Source: Candidatus Moraniibacteriota bacterium
Lineage (GTDB): Bacteria; Patescibacteriota; Minisyncoccia; Moranbacterales; GWC2-37-73
Length of the DNA: 64,000 bases
Assembly (NCBI GenBank): GCA_035390125.1
Contig: DAOOTD010000002.1
Coordinates: forward strand, 233,908-297,907
Direction: 5' to 3'
The position numbers were made by a program, and so were the translations under genes. The notes beneath the pieces were generated by a model. That model was not told the origin of the DNA, did not search any database, and saw only the letters and a program-made list of their open reading frames with translations. Each line of letters opens with the position of its first letter. Within the stretch, counting starts at the first letter, position 1. Positions 2,614-9,032 of the stretch are shown here, in pieces.

Positions 2614-2629
2614 ACACAATATATAGTGT
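2614..2629. promoter_or_regulatory. NrdR-box-like 16-bp palindrome ACACAATATATAGTGT
   Basis: Near-perfect match to the NrdR operator consensus (acaCwAtATaTwGtgt). It sits between the -10 element and the nrdR start. Confidence 0.5.
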
Positions 2630-2666: not shown

Positions 2667-3116
2667 ATGATTTGTCCATTTTGCGGACATAGCGAGACTA
2701 AAGTCGTTGATTCCCGCGACACTAATGACGGAAAAGCCATTCGTCGGCGCAGAGAATGCGAAAAATGTGAAACTCGTTTCAGTACCTATGAAGAAATGGA
2801 GATTATGAAATTGACTGTCATTAAGCGCGACGGAAGTAAACAAGAATATGATCGTAGTAAGATTGAAATCGGTATTCGTAAATCTATCGAAAAAAGACCA
2901 GTCAGTGAAGATAAAATCGAGAAATTGGTTGGTGACATAGAATACGAGATTCAAGCTAAAGAATCAAGTGAAATCACTAGTAAAGAAATAGGTAAGATAG
3001 TTCTAGAAAAACTTAAGGAAATAGATGATGTGGCTTATATGCGTTTCGCCAGTGTATATAAAGATTTCAAAAGTGCAGATAGCTTCCGAAAAGAAGCGGA
3101 AAAGCTGGAGACTTAA
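2667..3116 (+). CDS. nrdR: Transcriptional repressor NrdR
   Basis: N-terminal zinc ribbon MICPFCGHSETKVVDSRD...CEKCETRF followed by an ATP-cone. Confidence 0.9.
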   Translation: MICPFCGHSETKVVDSRDTNDGKAIRRRRECEKCETRFSTYEEMEIMKLTVIKRDGSKQEYDRSKIEIGIRKSIEKRPVSEDKIEKLVGDIEYEIQAKESSEITSKEIGKIVLEKLKEIDDVAYMRFASVYKDFKSADSFRKEAEKLET

Positions 3117-3189: not shown

Positions 3190-5379
3190 ATGAAAAAACA
3201 AAAAAAAGTAAAAAAAACAAAAGAAGCTGAAATAAAGGTGAAAAAAACAAGAGTGAAGAATCAGATCAAGAAAATTGTAAAGCGCAGTGGAACCGTAGTT
3301 TCTTTTGATAAGAAAAAAATCATAATTGCTATAAGTAAAGCTTTTGTCGCAACTGGAGAAGGAAGCGCTAAAGATGCAAAAAAAGTAACAGAAAAAGTTT
3401 TACGGCTTTTAAATAAGAATTACAAAAAAGGTTACATTCCCAGCGTGGAACAAGTGCAGGATGTTATAGAAAGGGTTTTAATGGTTCTTGATTTTGAGGA
3501 AACTGCAAAAGCTTATATCCTTTACCGCGAACAGCACAGAAAAATCCGTGAAACAGAAGAATCTCTAGATGAAGCCGTAAGTTTGGTAGATAAATATATT
3601 CAAGAAATAGACTGGAAAGTCAAAGAAAATGCTAACATGGCTTACTCTCTCCAAGGTCTTAATAATTACATAGCATCCATAGTTAGCAGTAAGTATTGGA
3701 TGAATCGTGTATATACAAAAGAAATAAGAGAAGCACATGAAGGGGGAGATTTCCATATTCATGATCTGCAACTAATCGCGGCTTATTGCTGTGGCTGGGA
3801 CCTTCAAGATCTAATCCGTCGTGGTTTTACGGGTGTTCCAGGTAAAGTAGCCTGTAAACCAGCTAAACATTTTGGTAGTCTCTTGGGACAGATGGTTAAT
3901 TTTATTTATACTCTTCAAGGAGAGGTTGCTGGAGCTCAGGCATTTTCTAATTTTGACACTTTGCTAGCTCCTTTTGTACGTTATGATAAATTGACTTATA
4001 CAGAAGTCAAGCAACAAATACAGTCTTTTGTGTTCAATATGAATGTTTCTACACGCGTTGGTTTTCAAACTCCTTTTTCAAATATAACTATGGATATTAC
4101 GCCTCCAAAAACATTAGCTAAAGAAGCTGTAATTATAGGAGGAGTAGCACAAAAAGAAACTTATGCTGATTTTCAGGAAGAGATGAATATGATTAATCGT
4201 GCTTTTGCGGAAGTTATGACAGAAGGCGATGCCAGTGGCAGAATTTTTACTTTTCCCATCCCGACATATAACATAGGCAAAAATTTTGATTGGAATGATA
4301 ATAGATTTGATGCTATTTGGGAAATGACAGCCAAATATGGAATCCCGTATTTTGCGAATTTCGTAAATTCAGACATGGATCCTGATGATGCGCGTTCAAT
4401 GTGCTGTCGATTAAGATTAGATAACAGAGAGCTTCATAAGCGCGGAGGTGGATTATTCGGTGCTAATCCTCTGACAGGTTCAGTAGGTGTGGTTACTATT
4501 AATATGCCGCGCTTAGGATATCTTTCTAAAAACAAAAAAGAATTTTTCAAAAGACTTGATGATCTTATGGATTTAGCAAAAAACAGTCTGGAAACTAAAA
4601 GAAAGTTAGTCGAGGGCCTGACAGAAAGAGGTTTATATCCATATACCAAGTTTTATCTTGATGCAATAAAAATGCGTCGTGGCCAATATTGGGCTAATCA
4701 CTTTTCTACTATTGGTTTGGTAGGCATGAACGAAGCCCTAATGAATTTGATTGGGAAAGATGTAACAACTAAAGATGGCCAGAAATTAGCTGAAGAAATA
4801 CTTGTGCATATGCGCGAAAGGATTGTTAGCTACCAGGAAGAAACAGGTAATTTATATAATTTAGAAGCAACTCCAGCTGAAGGAACAGCATATCGTTTAG
4901 CACGTATAGACAGAGAAAAATATCCGAAAGTTATTTTCGCTAATAATGATGCTGTTAAAAACAATGGGTTGGAACCTTATTATACAAATTCATCACAGCT
5001 GCCTGTTCAATTTACAAAAGATATTTTCGAAGCTCTTGATCTGCAGGAAAATTTGCAGACAAAATATACAGGAGGAACAGTTTTGCATGGGTTTTTAGGA
5101 GAACGTATTTGGGACATAGGAATGGTAAAAAAACTTGTAAGGAAAATTGCAGAAAACTATGCACTTCCTTACTTTACTTTATCGCCTACTTTCAGCATCT
5201 GTCCGGTACACGGTTACCTTCCAGGAGAACAGCCAATTTGTCCTAAATGCGTGGTTGAACAGAAAACAGAAATTTACTCTAGGGTAGTGGGTTATATCCG
5301 CCCAGTGCAGCAGTGGAATAAGGGTAAACAAGCCGAATTTAAGGATAGGAAAGAATTTATAGTTACAGAAATAAGCTAA
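3190..5379 (+). CDS. nrdD: Anaerobic ribonucleoside-triphosphate reductase (class III RNR)
   Basis: 729 aa. C-terminal Zn ribbon (CPVH...CPKC) followed by the glycyl-radical motif RVVGY. Confidence 0.9.
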   Translation: MKKQKKVKKTKEAEIKVKKTRVKNQIKKIVKRSGTVVSFDKKKIIIAISKAFVATGEGSAKDAKKVTEKVLRLLNKNYKKGYIPSVEQVQDVIERVLMVLDFEETAKAYILYREQHRKIRETEESLDEAVSLVDKYIQEIDWKVKENANMAYSLQGLNNYIASIVSSKYWMNRVYTKEIREAHEGGDFHIHDLQLIAAYCCGWDLQDLIRRGFTGVPGKVACKPAKHFGSLLGQMVNFIYTLQGEVAGAQAFSNFDTLLAPFVRYDKLTYTEVKQQIQSFVFNMNVSTRVGFQTPFSNITMDITPPKTLAKEAVIIGGVAQKETYADFQEEMNMINRAFAEVMTEGDASGRIFTFPIPTYNIGKNFDWNDNRFDAIWEMTAKYGIPYFANFVNSDMDPDDARSMCCRLRLDNRELHKRGGGLFGANPLTGSVGVVTINMPRLGYLSKNKKEFFKRLDDLMDLAKNSLETKRKLVEGLTERGLYPYTKFYLDAIKMRRGQYWANHFSTIGLVGMNEALMNLIGKDVTTKDGQKLAEEILVHMRERIVSYQEETGNLYNLEATPAEGTAYRLARIDREKYPKVIFANNDAVKNNGLEPYYTNSSQLPVQFTKDIFEALDLQENLQTKYTGGTVLHGFLGERIWDIGMVKKLVRKIAENYALPYFTLSPTFSICPVHGYLPGEQPICPKCVVEQKTEIYSRVVGYIRPVQQWNKGKQAEFKDRKEFIVTEIS

Positions 5380-5413
5380 GGGGATATTAATAAAAAATAA
5401 TAATAAAAAAAAT

Positions 5414-5674
5414 ATGAAAAAATATATATGCCATGACTGCGGTCGCATAATAGAAAACAATGAAGAGTATATGCCTTATAAAATTAATAATGAAGTATAC
5501 AATAAATGCAAGAATTGCCACCAAAAAGATCCAGCTTTGCACAATTTTAGGAAAACAGAAATTTACTCTAGGGTAGTGGGTTATATCCGCCCAGTGCAGC
5601 AGTGGAATAAGGGTAAACAAGCCGAATTTAAAGACAGGAAAGAATATGCTGTTGACAATGTGGCCTGTTGTTAG
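5414..5674 (+). CDS. Small stand-alone zinc-ribbon + glycyl-radical domain protein (NrdD C-terminus paralog)
   Basis: 86 aa. CHDCG...CKNCH Zn ribbon followed by TEIYSRVVGYIRPVQQWNKGKQAEFKDRKE. This tail is identical to the NrdD C-terminus and is encoded by a 95-nt near-identical repeat. Confidence 0.6.
   Translation: MKKYICHDCGRIIENNEEYMPYKINNEVYNKCKNCHQKDPALHNFRKTEIYSRVVGYIRPVQQWNKGKQAEFKDRKEYAVDNVACC
5551..5645 (+). repeat. 95-bp direct repeat (second copy); first copy at 5262..5356, 2 mismatches
   Basis: Read directly: gaaaacagaaatttactctagggtagtgggttatatccgcccagtgcagcagtggaataagggtaaacaagccgaatttaa is identical in both copies. Confidence 0.9.
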
Positions 5675-5746
5675 AAATAAAAAGAAAAAAGATAGCGGGG
5701 CAATATCTTAGGGGGTATTGCCCTGAATTGACTTTAAATTTTATTT

Positions 5747-6451
5747 ATGAAAATCGGAGGCTATCAAAAATTAACGCTTATTGATTATCCGGGGATTATT
5801 GCAACCACCCTCTTTACTGTAGGCTGTAGCTTTCGCTGTCCTTTCTGTCATAATCCTGAATTAGTGCTTAGATCAAATTTTGTTTCAGGTACAGAGAAAA
5901 AAGAAAAGGAATTTTTTGAATTTTTGAAAAAAAGAAAAGGAAAAATTGAAGGAGTATGCATTACCGGAGGAGAACCAACAATCCAGCCGGATATTATTGA
6001 TTTCATAAAAAAAATAAAAGAATTTGGATTCTTAGTTAAATTTGATACTAATGGGACTCGGCCGGATATCCTAAAAAAACTTTTAGACTTGAAGCTTTTG
6101 GATTTTGTGGCTATGGATATTAAAAATCAGCTTAAAAAATATGATAAAACAGTAGGAATGAAGGTTGATAAAAAAAGAATAAAACTAAGCGTTAATCTGA
6201 TATTGAATAGCAGGGTTCCATATGAATTTCGAACTACAGCTGTGCCGGGAATTCACAACGAAGAAGATTTTCTGGAAATTGCCAAATGGATCAAGGGGGC
6301 AGAGGCTTATTATTTGCAGGAATACAGGGAAAAAATTATTTTAGATCCGAAATTGAAAAATAAAACTAAAGGTAAAACGCTGGATTTGAAAAAAATAAAA
6401 AAATCAATTGAGAAGAATTTCAAGAAAATAGGGATAAGAGAGAATAATTAA
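5747..6451 (+). CDS. nrdG: Anaerobic RNR activating enzyme (radical SAM)
   Basis: CxxxCxxC radical-SAM motif CSFRCPFCHN. Located immediately downstream of nrdD. Confidence 0.8.
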   Translation: MKIGGYQKLTLIDYPGIIATTLFTVGCSFRCPFCHNPELVLRSNFVSGTEKKEKEFFEFLKKRKGKIEGVCITGGEPTIQPDIIDFIKKIKEFGFLVKFDTNGTRPDILKKLLDLKLLDFVAMDIKNQLKKYDKTVGMKVDKKRIKLSVNLILNSRVPYEFRTTAVPGIHNEEDFLEIAKWIKGAEAYYLQEYREKIILDPKLKNKTKGKTLDLKKIKKSIEKNFKKIGIRENN

Positions 6452-6499: not shown

Positions 6500-6724
6500 A
6501 TGCGTATATACATAAAAGCTTCCCCACGATCCTCCAAGAATGAGGTTGTACAAATTTCCGAAGGGGAATATAAAGTAAAATTGAAAGCTGCGCCGATTAA
6601 TGGACGGGCTAACCTAATGCTAATAGAAGTTTTGGCTAAATATTTTAAAATTCCGAAAAAAATAATTAAAATTGTCGGAGGGAAAAGTGCAAAAATAAAA
6701 ATAATTGATATAATTGACGCATGA
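6500..6724 (+). CDS. DUF167 / YggU-family small protein
   Basis: KASPRSSKNEV...KAAPINGRAN...IVGGKSAKIKII pattern typical of the YggU family. Confidence 0.55.
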   Translation: MRIYIKASPRSSKNEVVQISEGEYKVKLKAAPINGRANLMLIEVLAKYFKIPKKIIKIVGGKSAKIKIIDIIDA

Positions 6725-8184
6725 CCAAATCACGCGTCTTTTTTATTGTCCTAATTTCTTTCTTAGTAGGAATTTTTATCCGCTCTTTTTTTGAATTAAA
6801 TCAAAGTGTATATTTCTTACTGCTGATTTTCTCTATAATATTCTTGGGGGTCTTTTATAAAAATAAAATAATAATCGTAGTTCCCTTTGTTTTATTATTT
6901 TTTACGTTTGGAGCCTGGTACACGGATAATAAGCTTAAAAAAATAAATTATTTGCTGCTTGACAATGTTGAATTTTATGGGAAAGGAATTGTTGAAAAAG
7001 TTTCTCCGAATACTTTTGGTCATAATTTAATAGTAAAAGTAGAAGATTCGCTTTCTGATAAAGCAGGAATTTCTTTACTAATCCAGATTCCAAAATATCC
7101 CGAATATTTCTATGGCGATGAAATGGAAATTTATTGCATTGTCAATAAAATAGAAAATAGAAATAAAGAATTTGACTACAGAATGTACATGGCCAAAGAA
7201 GACGTTTTTTATTCTTGTGAAAAAACAAAAATAAAAAAAATAGGTGAAAATAAAGGAAATATTCTTTTGGGCAATATTCTAAAAATAAAAATCCTTTTTG
7301 AAAATAATATCCGTGCTGTTATCCCGCAGCCTGAAGGATCTTTAGCAAGCGGACTTTTATTCGGTGGTAGCAGTGAATTGTCTAAGGAAATACAAAATGA
7401 TTTTTCTCGAACCGGTATGACGCATATCGTGGCTGTTTCTGGATATAACGTTACAATTATCGCAGAGTACTTAATCTTTCTTGGTCTTTGGCTGGGAATG
7501 TGGAGAAAAAACGCTGTTTGGCTTGCAATTATTGGAATAATTGTTTTCGTAATTATGATCGGTTTTCCTTCTTCAGCAGTCAGGGCTGGAGTTATGGGAG
7601 GCATATTGCTTTGGGCTATGAAAAACGGACGATTAGCTAACTCCCAAAACGCCATTGTTTTTGCGGCAACAGTAATGCTGTTGATTAATCCATTGCTTCT
7701 GAGATGGGATATTGGCTTTCAGCTTTCTTTTTTAGCAACTTTAGGAATTGTAGAAACATCCACTTTTTGGGAAAAAAGTTTCATCAAAAAACATAAAGCC
7801 TTGGGAATTTCGGAAATAATCGCAATGTCGCTCAGTGCTCAGATTTTTGTTTTGCCAATTATCGCGTATAATTTTCATATAACGTCCCTAATTTCGCTTT
7901 TAGCAAATGTTTTGATTTTGCCCATAATTCCACTTTCCATGTTGCTGGTTTTTCTTGCATCTATCTGCGGATTTATTTTCTATGGAGTATCCTTGGTTTT
8001 CGCTTGGCTGGCTTTCGTTCCTCTGTTGTATGAAATAAAAATTGTGCAGATATTAGCCGGACTGCCATGGGCAAGCATAAAAATAGAAAAAATTAATATT
8101 TGGTGGTTTATAATATATTATTGTTCCTTATTAGGAGGGATATATTATTTAAAAAAACGCACATGCAAAATAACAGAAAAATAA
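6721..8184 (+). CDS. comEC: ComEC/Rec2 membrane channel portion (DUF4131 + competence domain)
   Basis: Multi-TM protein with the ComEC competence-domain motif GMTHIVAVSGYNV. It ends inside an A7 tract and overlaps the next ORF. Confidence 0.75.
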   Translation: MTKSRVFFIVLISFLVGIFIRSFFELNQSVYFLLLIFSIIFLGVFYKNKIIIVVPFVLLFFTFGAWYTDNKLKKINYLLLDNVEFYGKGIVEKVSPNTFGHNLIVKVEDSLSDKAGISLLIQIPKYPEYFYGDEMEIYCIVNKIENRNKEFDYRMYMAKEDVFYSCEKTKIKKIGENKGNILLGNILKIKILFENNIRAVIPQPEGSLASGLLFGGSSELSKEIQNDFSRTGMTHIVAVSGYNVTIIAEYLIFLGLWLGMWRKNAVWLAIIGIIVFVIMIGFPSSAVRAGVMGGILLWAMKNGRLANSQNAIVFAATVMLLINPLLLRWDIGFQLSFLATLGIVETSTFWEKSFIKKHKALGISEIIAMSLSAQIFVLPIIAYNFHITSLISLLANVLILPIIPLSMLLVFLASICGFIFYGVSLVFAWLAFVPLLYEIKIVQILAGLPWASIKIEKINIWWFIIYYCSLLGGIYYLKKRTCKITEK

Positions 8185-9032
8185 TTTATGGAATTATAAT
8201 TGGGTTGCTTGTATTATTTTTAATTTTAACTGGAATTATTTTTTCAGTGCAAAAAAATAATTTGCAGGTAGTTTTTCTAAATATTGGCCAAGGTGATGCC
8301 ATTCTGATTTCACAAGGAAAAAATCAAATTCTTATTGACGGTGGTAAAGATGGAAAATTGCTTTTGGAAAAGCTTGGAAAATATATTCCATTTTGGGATC
8401 GGAATGTCGAAATGATAGTTGCAACTCATCCAGACCAGGACCATATAGGAGGGCTTATTGAAATTTTGAATTCATATCATGTAGATTTGATTTTTAAGAC
8501 AAATGCAGAAAGCGAATCAGAGACATATAAAAAACTTGAAGAAGAAATTGCAAAAGAAAAATCGCAAAAAATTGAGGCCAAAAAAGGTATAAGCATAAAA
8601 TTGTCTGACAGTGTTACTGCCGACGTACTTTTTCCAATTGATTCGCTTACTGATACGATTGATGGAGCCAGCAATGACAACAGCGTTGTAGTTAAATTAA
8701 CTTACGGCATAAACAAATTTCTTTTTACTGGCGATCTTCCAAATACTCAGGAAACAAAAATTATAAATTCAGGTCAAGATTTAAATGCTCAAGTTTTAAA
8801 AGTTTCACATCATGGTTCAAAATATGCAACTGAAAATAATTTTTTGGGTGTTGTAAATCCAGCTGACGCTATTATTTCTGTTGGTAAAAATAATCAATAT
8901 GGTCATCCGAATCAGGAAGTTTTAAACCGTTTATTGCAGCATAAAATAAAAATTTTCCGGACTGATGAAATAGGGGATATTGTATATAAATGCGCAAATG
9001 CGGAAGCGCAATGCATGCAAGTTGCCAACTGA
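8163..9032 (+). CDS. comEC: ComEC C-terminal metallo-beta-lactamase domain (separate ORF, alternate frame)
   Basis: An N-terminal TM helix followed by the MBL motifs ATHPDQDHIGG and SHHGS. It is in frame with upstream sequence from 8100. Confidence 0.75.
   Translation: MQNNRKIIYGIIIGLLVLFLILTGIIFSVQKNNLQVVFLNIGQGDAILISQGKNQILIDGGKDGKLLLEKLGKYIPFWDRNVEMIVATHPDQDHIGGLIEILNSYHVDLIFKTNAESESETYKKLEEEIAKEKSQKIEAKKGISIKLSDSVTADVLFPIDSLTDTIDGASNDNSVVVKLTYGINKFLFTGDLPNTQETKIINSGQDLNAQVLKVSHHGSKYATENNFLGVVNPADAIISVGKNNQYGHPNQEVLNRLLQHKIKIFRTDEIGDIVYKCANAEAQCMQVAN

Follow-up and report, generated by a model that had tools for sequence, protein, structure and literature searches.

A 64,000 bp stretch of the genome of a Candidatus Moraniibacteriota bacterium (contig DAOOTD010000002.1; referred to here as the window) encodes on its forward strand the catalytic subunit NrdD of a class III ribonucleotide reductase (RNR; 729 aa, positions 3190..5379) and, directly after it, a protein of 86 aa (the mini-protein, 5414..5674) that is a free-standing glycyl-radical domain of the NrdD type. 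The mini-protein is probably a replaceable radical module of NrdD that acts in trans, a spare part in the manner of GrcA/YfiD of E. coli; this reading is based on genomes only. The open reading frame (ORF) lies between the end of nrdD and the activase gene nrdG, as the earlier note on this DNA had described. The GrcA-like logic for NrdD that was proposed there is supported by genomes in which a tail-less NrdD is accompanied by the mini-protein, by clusters of the gene with those for PerR-like regulators, rubrerythrin, superoxide dismutase (SOD) and desulfoferrodoxin, and by lone copies in phages.

The mini-protein consists of a predicted zinc ribbon (C6-H-D-C9 ... C32-x-x-C35-H, positions 5429-5518), followed by the glycyl loop SRVVG56Y, whose glycine is encoded at 5579-5581, and it ends with the Cys pair C85-C86 (5666-5671). 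In NrdD, an MCCR finger loop is found at residues 404-407 (4399-4410), a CxxH...CxxC zinc site at C671, H674, C684 and C687 (5200-5250), and the glycyl-radical tail contains G701 (5290-5292), to which Gly56 of the mini-protein is equivalent. The two proteins share 31 identical residues, KTEIYSRVVGYIRPVQQWNKGKQAEFKDRKE, at 47-77 of 86 in the mini-protein (K47-E77) and at 692-722 of 729 in NrdD (K692-E722). These had been taken for the last residues of the mini-protein; the identity is as claimed, but the stretch is internal in both proteins, with the mini-protein ending in YAVDNVACC and NrdD in FIVTEIS.

NrdD proteins that lack a radical site

Homologues of the mini-protein were surveyed with one genome per GTDB species, and three kinds of context were distinguished. 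A homology search for small ORFs resembling the NrdD C-terminus found them in the order nrdD-mini-nrdG in sister genomes. The arrangement of the window, nrdR followed by a complete nrdD, the mini-protein gene and nrdG, is present in nine further species and in the cultured Minisyncoccus archaeiphilus, where the mini-protein has 92 aa.

In the second context the operon is the same but NrdD has no radical site (L003, L004, L007, L008, L009 and L012). These nrdD genes are intact ORFs of 693-774 aa, the products of which are 70-82% identical to the window NrdD and retain an identical finger loop, DARSMCCRLRLD, as well as the zinc site. Beyond that site the sequences run, for example, as ...CPKCVIEQKTEVFLKVGEEEL..., with the stretch TEVFLKVGEE in one of them, or as ...TVYLKVVMAD or ...VEVVRKVCC, the last two followed by a stop codon. 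By their sequences these ends look like decayed remnants of the tail, and they stop about where cleavage by O2 would. Each of the six loci contains exactly one SRVVGY motif, which is that of the mini-protein. A sequencing frameshift that hides the glycyl domain was considered and rejected: no glycyl motif was found in the other frames of the loci as covered, over 4.7-12 kb (5.7 kb in L003, 6.3 kb in L007 and 4.7 kb in L012). The arrangement of a split RNR, with a catalytic chain that lacks a C-terminal module encoded by the adjacent gene, is seen in these six loci and not in the window, where NrdD has its own glycyl tail.

On a neighbour-joining tree of NrdD cores (without bootstrap) the tail-less proteins are found in at least three separate places, and the sequences point to at least three independent losses of the NrdD glycyl motif across the six sister genomes. 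The genomes that have lost the mini-protein (L032, L056 and L080) all retain the NrdD tail, and none was found without both. The loss of either copy, but never of both, is the signature of interchangeable parts. Unless the RNR is dead in the six species, the radical must come there in trans from the mini-protein. Where it is the only radical domain, the mini-protein is not a spare but a subunit that the enzyme cannot do without.

Other nrdD genes consist of two ORFs that part at the zinc ribbon. They come from Desulfuromonadales-like genomes (L041, L058, L059, L066 and L077), from the Candidate Phyla Radiation (CPR; L055 and L061) and from an archaeon (L043). The body ends in ...CPVHGYIAGEHFxCP.. 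and a stop codon, and the second ORF, of 45-100 aa, starts with M-x-x-K-C-x-x-K-TEVYSRVCGFFRPVQQWNKGK. In the Desulfuromonadales-like genomes the small ORF reads M-x-x-K-C-x-x-K-TEVYSRVCGF..., and the fourth zinc ligand would be on the small chain. Because the split is seen repeatedly in independent metagenome-assembled genomes (MAGs), it is probably real gene fission. If these split genes are functional, their sequences suggest that the radical domain tolerates being a separate chain. In addition, nrdD is broken into two ORFs inside the catalytic core at L006:3779-5960, L079:3848-5984 and L061:804-2950, which may represent frameshifts, pseudogenes or sequencing errors. Unusually long NrdD ORFs are present at L044:2419-6186 (1255 aa) and L068:3121-6258 (1045 aa), where several hundred extra core residues are likely to be due to inteins.

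The third context, in other CPR genomes, is away from nrdD and nrdG. Here the homologue is directly after, and overlaps, a Fur-family gene, the product of which scores 80-103 bits with PerR models and at most 57 with Fur/Zur models. The gene that follows encodes Fe/Mn SOD (L014, L087 and L088), rubrerythrin (L018, and L031 where it is behind an Rrf2 gene) or hemerythrin (L030), and in L033 rubrerythrin and desulfoferrodoxin are encoded. One database gene call (P0227) contains both Fur and NRDD Pfam domains. A Desulfobacterales MAG has an unlinked mini-protein gene (L016) together with a complete nrdD-nrdG locus (L053), an arrangement like that of pflB and grcA in E. coli. Unannotated ORFs of 37-85 aa, some of them Cys-rich, are present between the PerR-linked mini-protein genes and the SOD genes (L014:5219-5476, L087:4337-4495 and L088:4976-5089).

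Stand-alone copies are also found in approximately 35 IMG/VR contigs (L089-L120 among them), none of them with nrdD, nrdG or PerR closer than 4 kb. PHROG matches back the viral context in three contigs with informative neighbours. The mini-protein gene of L108 is between PmgB-like head morphogenesis/tail tube genes and a tape measure gene, that of L090 adjoins RuvC-like and SbcC-like genes, and that of L089 an RNA ligase gene. Among the GenBank phages (INPHARED) there is only one small-ORF example, the ANMV-1 virus (KP703175.1, L170:2249-2683), with a 144-aa member (AJP62049.1) that has a CHDC...KCPKC ribbon and MYSRIVGYLRPVNQWNKGK. This copy was published as 'nrdD', meaning a full oxygen-sensitive RNR (Paul et al. 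2015, PMC4372165). At 144 aa and without the catalytic barrel it cannot be a full RNR; the family had therefore been seen but not recognised.

Family, origin and gene conversion

In a Pfam scan at E <= 0.1 the mini-protein matches only NRDD, at model positions 510-562 of 562 (E 3e-14; 52.9 bits, cut-off 26.2), together with two sub-threshold zinc-ribbon-type matches; there is no match to Gly_radical. It scores 43 bits with NCBIfam TIGR02487, for which the cut-off is 326, and has neither the ten-stranded barrel nor the M[GC]CR finger loop of an NrdD enzyme. The NrdD-family feature of a glycyl-radical motif after a predicted four-ligand zinc site is present (SRVVG56Y; C6, C9, C32 and C35). No model for the mini-protein family exists in NCBIfam, and a profile search of the PDB found no match at E <= 0.01. 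In a single-sequence search of the PDB the T. maritima NrdD was reached at E 1.4 only, the top matches being unrelated C2H2 fingers. The databases label the mini-protein as 'anaerobic ribonucleoside-triphosphate reductase' or as hypothetical, the former of which is a misnomer for a protein of 86 aa.

A search of 5.8 billion proteins with the mini-protein of the window returned 955 matches. The best 120 of these are all 80-113 aa (mostly 86-88), have 60-86% identity, and come from Moranbacteria, Parcubacteria and Patescibacteria; a search with a more distant member added 155 further small proteins, and nearly all of the family, which amounts to hundreds of clusters, falls within 80-113 aa. In the N-terminal half of aligned members the residues that never vary are C6, D8, C9, Y22, K31, C32, C35 and L42, and for the four cysteines C6, C9, C32 and C35 this holds in alignments of 38 and of 33 members. 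The tail has the conserved pattern SRVVGY...RP..QW...K..E..DR. Of the Moranbacteria-type members 108/120, but of the Paceibacteria-type members only 25/119, end with a Cys pair (CC, CxC or CxxC), which the NrdD tails next to them lack. Similar ends with Cys pairs are seen in a few full-length NrdDs of other loci (RCKCTF in L035, LSCCA in L049).

A hidden Markov model of the ribbon half, when run on 1.84 billion representatives, returned 82 clusters of 47-146 aa, the sole exception being one unrelated repeat protein, and no full-length NrdD. Full-length NrdDs were considered as the source of the CHDC ribbon and rejected, as the BLAST extensions into the ribbon turned out to be ordinary CPxHGY...CPxC ribbons. 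This ordinary form is that of full-length NrdDs of the same and of other phyla. As the ribbon profile finds small proteins and the full-length NrdDs carry CPxHGY...CPxC, the CHDC ribbon is therefore private to the free-standing proteins. These comparisons indicate that the mini-protein family and the NrdD C-terminal domain are paralogues of long standing and not the outcome of a recent duplication.

The shared 31 residues are encoded by a direct repeat, with copy 1 in nrdD (5262..5356) and copy 2 in the mini-protein gene (5551..5645). The copies are identical at 93 of 95 nt, the first 81 nt having no mismatch and being followed by two mismatches, in agreement with the earlier description. Both mismatches are at synonymous third positions, AAG/AAA (Lys) at 5343/5632 and GAT/GAC (Asp) at 5346/5635. 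A 50-nt core of the repeat has exactly 2 occurrences in the window, where 0.00 are expected from shuffles. The sequences of the two genes 5' of the tract are unrelated, and the ribbon signatures differ (CPVHGY-x9-CPKC in NrdD and CHDC-x22-CKNC in the mini-protein), as expected from the diverged N-terminal half that had been reported.

Recent duplication or gene conversion had been offered to account for this identity, and it is the latter that stands, since only the 95-nt tract is homogenised. The family being old and the ribbon half diverged, the 97% identity confined to 95 nt is therefore secondary. A recent whole-gene duplication is rejected: the similarity is limited to the tract, the ribbon half is old and distinct, and similar tracts have arisen independently elsewhere. 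Within a genome, the tails of NrdD and of the mini-protein have a nucleotide identity of 0.97 in the window and 0.95, 0.87, 0.85, 0.84 and 0.83 in others, representing six lineages, against a between-genome background of ~0.70; L001 and L010-L013, at 0.73-0.76, are at background level. For 28 of the 30 identical-residue codons in the window the same codon is used, compared with ~48% in unconverted genomes (binomial P 1.5e-7). These comparisons show gene conversion between the two tails to be recurrent and lineage-specific. Such conversion would ensure that the glycyl loop of the spare continues to match the resident loop, and hence the same barrel and activase.

Proposed function and competing explanations

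Glycyl-radical enzymes are irreversibly destroyed by O2 through cleavage of the backbone at the radical glycine, and anaerobes need class III RNR for every round of DNA synthesis. In the mechanism proposed here, the mini-protein gene would be co-transcribed with nrdR and nrdD from the NrdR-box promoter, as the layout suggests, and NrdG would generate a radical on Gly56, as comparative genomics points to. The 31 residues round Gly56 are those round Gly701 of NrdD, therefore NrdG should not distinguish its substrates by local sequence. The zinc ribbon would dock the module on NrdD, and the glycyl loop would enter the barrel of an NrdD that lacks its radical domain or in which O2 has cleaved that domain at the glycine. 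This insertion would restore the Gly-to-Cys radical relay to the MCCR finger loop, and rescue would result. In the genome of the window, where NrdD is complete, the mini-protein would be a second, replaceable copy made alongside the enzyme.

Like the mini-protein, GrcA/YfiD of E. coli (IPR011140, Pfam Gly_radical) is a small stand-alone protein that amounts in essence to the domain bearing the radical in a large glycyl-radical enzyme. It is found alongside its complete parent enzyme, as the 86-aa mini-protein is alongside the 729-aa NrdD, and uses the activase of its parent, as is proposed for the mini-protein and NrdG on the basis of sequence. The expected role of GrcA/YfiD is the replacement of the domain destroyed by O2 (PMC8683613, PMC13450708). 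Unlike GrcA, the mini-protein has a class III RNR rather than pyruvate formate-lyase (PFL) as its parent, it has a predicted zinc ribbon where the N-terminal half of GrcA is disordered, and it is encoded here inside the operon of its parent and is the sole radical domain in some genomes. Membership of the GrcA family by PF01228/IPR011140 homology is rejected for want of a Gly_radical match, and the mini-protein should be seen as an analogue. Y06I of phage T4, a PFL-type GrcA homologue, is a stand-alone radical domain without an adjacent parent, as are the NrdD-type phage copies. The C-terminal domain of NrdD itself (T4 Gly580, E. coli Gly681; PDB 1H7A/1H79; T. maritima 4COI/4U3E) has the same plan of a four-ligand zinc site followed by an RVxGY-type loop. 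The mini-protein differs from that domain in being a separate polypeptide, in its CHDC, 22-36-residue spacer and KCxxC, and in its extra terminal Cys pair.

Literature searches that covered GrcA-like spare parts, split and truncated NrdD and the ANMV-1 virus turned up no account of an NrdD radical domain that stands alone. Among the split nrdD genes of phages most are due to introns or homing endonucleases, and no such domain is described (Dwivedi et al. 2013), and statements from 2021 and June 2026 have spare parts known only for PFL (PMC8683613, PMC13450708; Andorfer et al. among them). The searches and these statements from the field agree with the earlier remark that there is no established equivalent for NrdD. 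The mini-protein is therefore the first strong spare-part candidate for a glycyl-radical enzyme other than PFL. The tail-less NrdDs provide a natural control, as they could work only with the mini-protein. If the spare-part reading is true, it would explain the oxygen-pulse tolerance of small-genome, NrdD-dependent CPR bacteria, add a new phage auxiliary gene, correct the widespread mis-annotation of small ORFs taken as evidence of a complete RNR (PMC4372165), and provide enzymologists with a minimal NrdG substrate. One carrier, Minisyncoccus archaeiphilus, is in culture (PMC12281837); with its small proteins, natural tail-less partners and this cultured carrier, the system is testable.

Several observations weigh against a spare part. 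An NrdD cleaved by O2 would retain its own zinc ribbon, and a second ribbon would have to dock beside it. The terminal Cys pair is beyond the reach of a pure spare-part role. In the AlphaFold monomer of the mini-protein the predicted local distance difference test score is ~77 for the ribbon and <50 for the glycyl loop; low confidence in the loop would be expected of such a model if the loop folds upon insertion, though this is no proof. The PerR scores of the Fur-family genes are under the NCBIfam curated cut-offs, and the other Desulfobacterota copies have an N-terminal extension and mostly uninformative neighbours. In the window, the mini-protein gene is in an NrdR-controlled nrd operon without an oxygen-specific regulator. 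Its expression is therefore probably constitutive, whereas that of a repair factor would be induced.

Some of these features would be accommodated if the mini-protein were simply the normal radical subunit of a two-piece class III RNR, unrelated to oxygen repair, with the NrdD tail redundant and being lost. This explanation, which shares its trans mechanism with the spare part and differs only in purpose, is rated less likely and is on the whole rather unlikely. It is consistent with tail-less NrdD plus mini-protein in six genomes, with the signals of co-transcription with nrdD and the lack of a stress regulator in the window locus, and with the clean nrdD fissions of other genomes. A precedent also exists in the split class II RNR NrdJa/NrdJb of Pseudomonas aeruginosa (Crona et al. 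2015, cited in PMC9669993), where the C-terminal zinc-finger module is a separate chain encoded next to the catalytic one, as in the genomes with tail-less NrdD. However, NrdJa/NrdJb belong to another RNR class and the NrdJ module serves in reductant delivery rather than as a radical site, and the catalytic chain of the window is untruncated. Furthermore, both copies occur together in lineages as far apart as Moranbacteria, Minisyncoccus and Paceibacteria, the NrdD tail of the window is intact and homogenised by gene conversion rather than decaying, and some lineages have dropped the mini-protein and retained the tail. The unlinked copies in PerR-like/rubrerythrin/SOD clusters and in phages are unexplained by a plain subunit. 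In a reading that goes further than a spare part and is quite unlikely, the class III RNR of these lineages would use the mini-protein by preference, as an exchangeable radical 'cartridge' that is functionally distinct from the NrdD tail, deployed by cells under the control of PerR and also supplied by phages. In that case the CHDC ribbon and the Cys pair would add a capability foreign to known glycyl-radical domains, and phage cartridges would sustain host deoxyribonucleoside triphosphate synthesis. The C-terminal Cys pairs of class I and II RNRs deliver reducing equivalents. By analogy, the added capability may be a thiol-based supply of reductant to the MCCR-type active site; another candidate is that the radical is protected or quenched when O2 is present.

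A role as regulator or decoy is highly improbable. Such a protein, instead of completing NrdD, would titrate NrdG or act as its chaperone, serve as a store or buffer for the radical, or obstruct the NrdD barrel, and its ribbon and terminal Cys pair would be devoted to this role. The NrdD tail has no equivalent of the invariant ribbon residues H7, D8, Y22, K31, L42 and N44 or of the C-terminal Cys pair, and an identical glycyl loop would compete for NrdG. Yet the genomes with an NrdD that has no glycyl site would have a dead enzyme unless the mini-protein supplies the radical, and we know of no precedent for such a role. It is hardly credible that the gene is non-functional, whether as an assembly duplication or as the decaying remnant of a second nrdD, both of which had been raised in the earlier note. 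Near-identical 95-nt direct repeats 289 nt apart are of the type that assemblers can create, and the databases label the ORF as an enzyme, as though it were a fragment. Against this, window positions 5101-5800, which include both repeat copies and both differences, have zero mismatches in JGI 3300025706, ENA ERZ27257480 and JGI 3300025902, contigs that stem from three samples and from two data sources. The mini-protein is found unchanged on 13 contigs, and the repeat is shorter than a typical read. With three independent assemblies base-for-base alike, an assembly artefact is rejected as far as sequence comparison allows and is very unlikely. A pseudogene is likewise rejected. The frame, the length (mostly 86-88 aa) and eight residues of the N-terminal half are kept in more than 200 homologues, length, start and frame being conserved across hundreds, and the ribbon has no match in any full-length NrdD. 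For 13 Moranbacteria-type genes, the nonsynonymous (pN) and synonymous (pS) differences are 0.30 and 0.84 in the ribbon half (pN/pS 0.36) and 0.14 and 0.83 in the tail (pN/pS 0.17), estimates in which synonymous sites are saturated. These values indicate purifying selection on both halves of the mini-protein.

The nrd operon and its neighbours

The host is a low-GC CPR bacterium, and NCBI assigns the identical mini-protein to 'Candidatus Moranbacteria'. In the window, ftsA, ftsZ and a terminator precede the nrd promoter-like site on the forward strand, the strand of all the nrd features of the window. This site, TTGACT-16-AATAGT, is just before an NrdR-box-like 16-mer, ACACAATATATAGTGT (2614..2629), located 38 nt 5' of nrdR. 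The 16-mer resembles the NrdR-box consensus acaCwAtATaTwGtgt (attributed to Rodionov and Gelfand 2005), and its position suggests autoregulation of an nrdR-nrdD-mini transcript. The transcriptional repressor of RNR genes encoded by nrdR (2667..3116, 149 aa) has the Pfam domains Zn_ribbon_NrdR and ATP-cone. NrdD also has an ATP-cone, and matches Pfam NRDD (PF13597, E 1e-198) and NCBIfam NF006126 (1083 bits). The radical-SAM activase of the class III RNR is encoded by nrdG (5747..6451, 234 aa), with matches to Pfam Radical_SAM and Fer4_12 and to the NrdG2 model TIGR02495 (213.9 bits, cut-off 131).

The spacer between nrdD and the mini-protein gene is 34 nt and has no terminator; a terminator-like hairpin is found only 3' of the mini-protein gene. 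Here, between that gene and nrdG, a GATAG box is followed by a hairpin of 13 bp (5691..5725, the hairpin being 5696-5725) with a folding energy of -22.6 kcal/mol (z = -4.3). The hairpin is in an equal position in 10 loci (the window, L001, L003-L006 and L008-L011), with compensatory changes in 7/13 pairs. It is preceded by the conserved box AAAAGATAG, the base of its stem is GGGGCRA...TYGCCCY, and the U-tract is weak. No Rfam family matches it. From its sequence and position the hairpin may be a partial terminator that sets the ratio of nrdD and mini-protein to nrdG, although the conserved GATAG is left unaccounted for by a terminator role. Minisyncoccus archaeiphilus has a canonical terminator at this position.

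Further 3', ComEC, usually one protein of three domains, is encoded at 6721-9032 by two overlapping ORFs, the first with DUF4131 and Competence domains (6721..8184) and the second with the metallo-beta-lactamase domain (8100..9032). The same split gene calls recur in an independent assembly.

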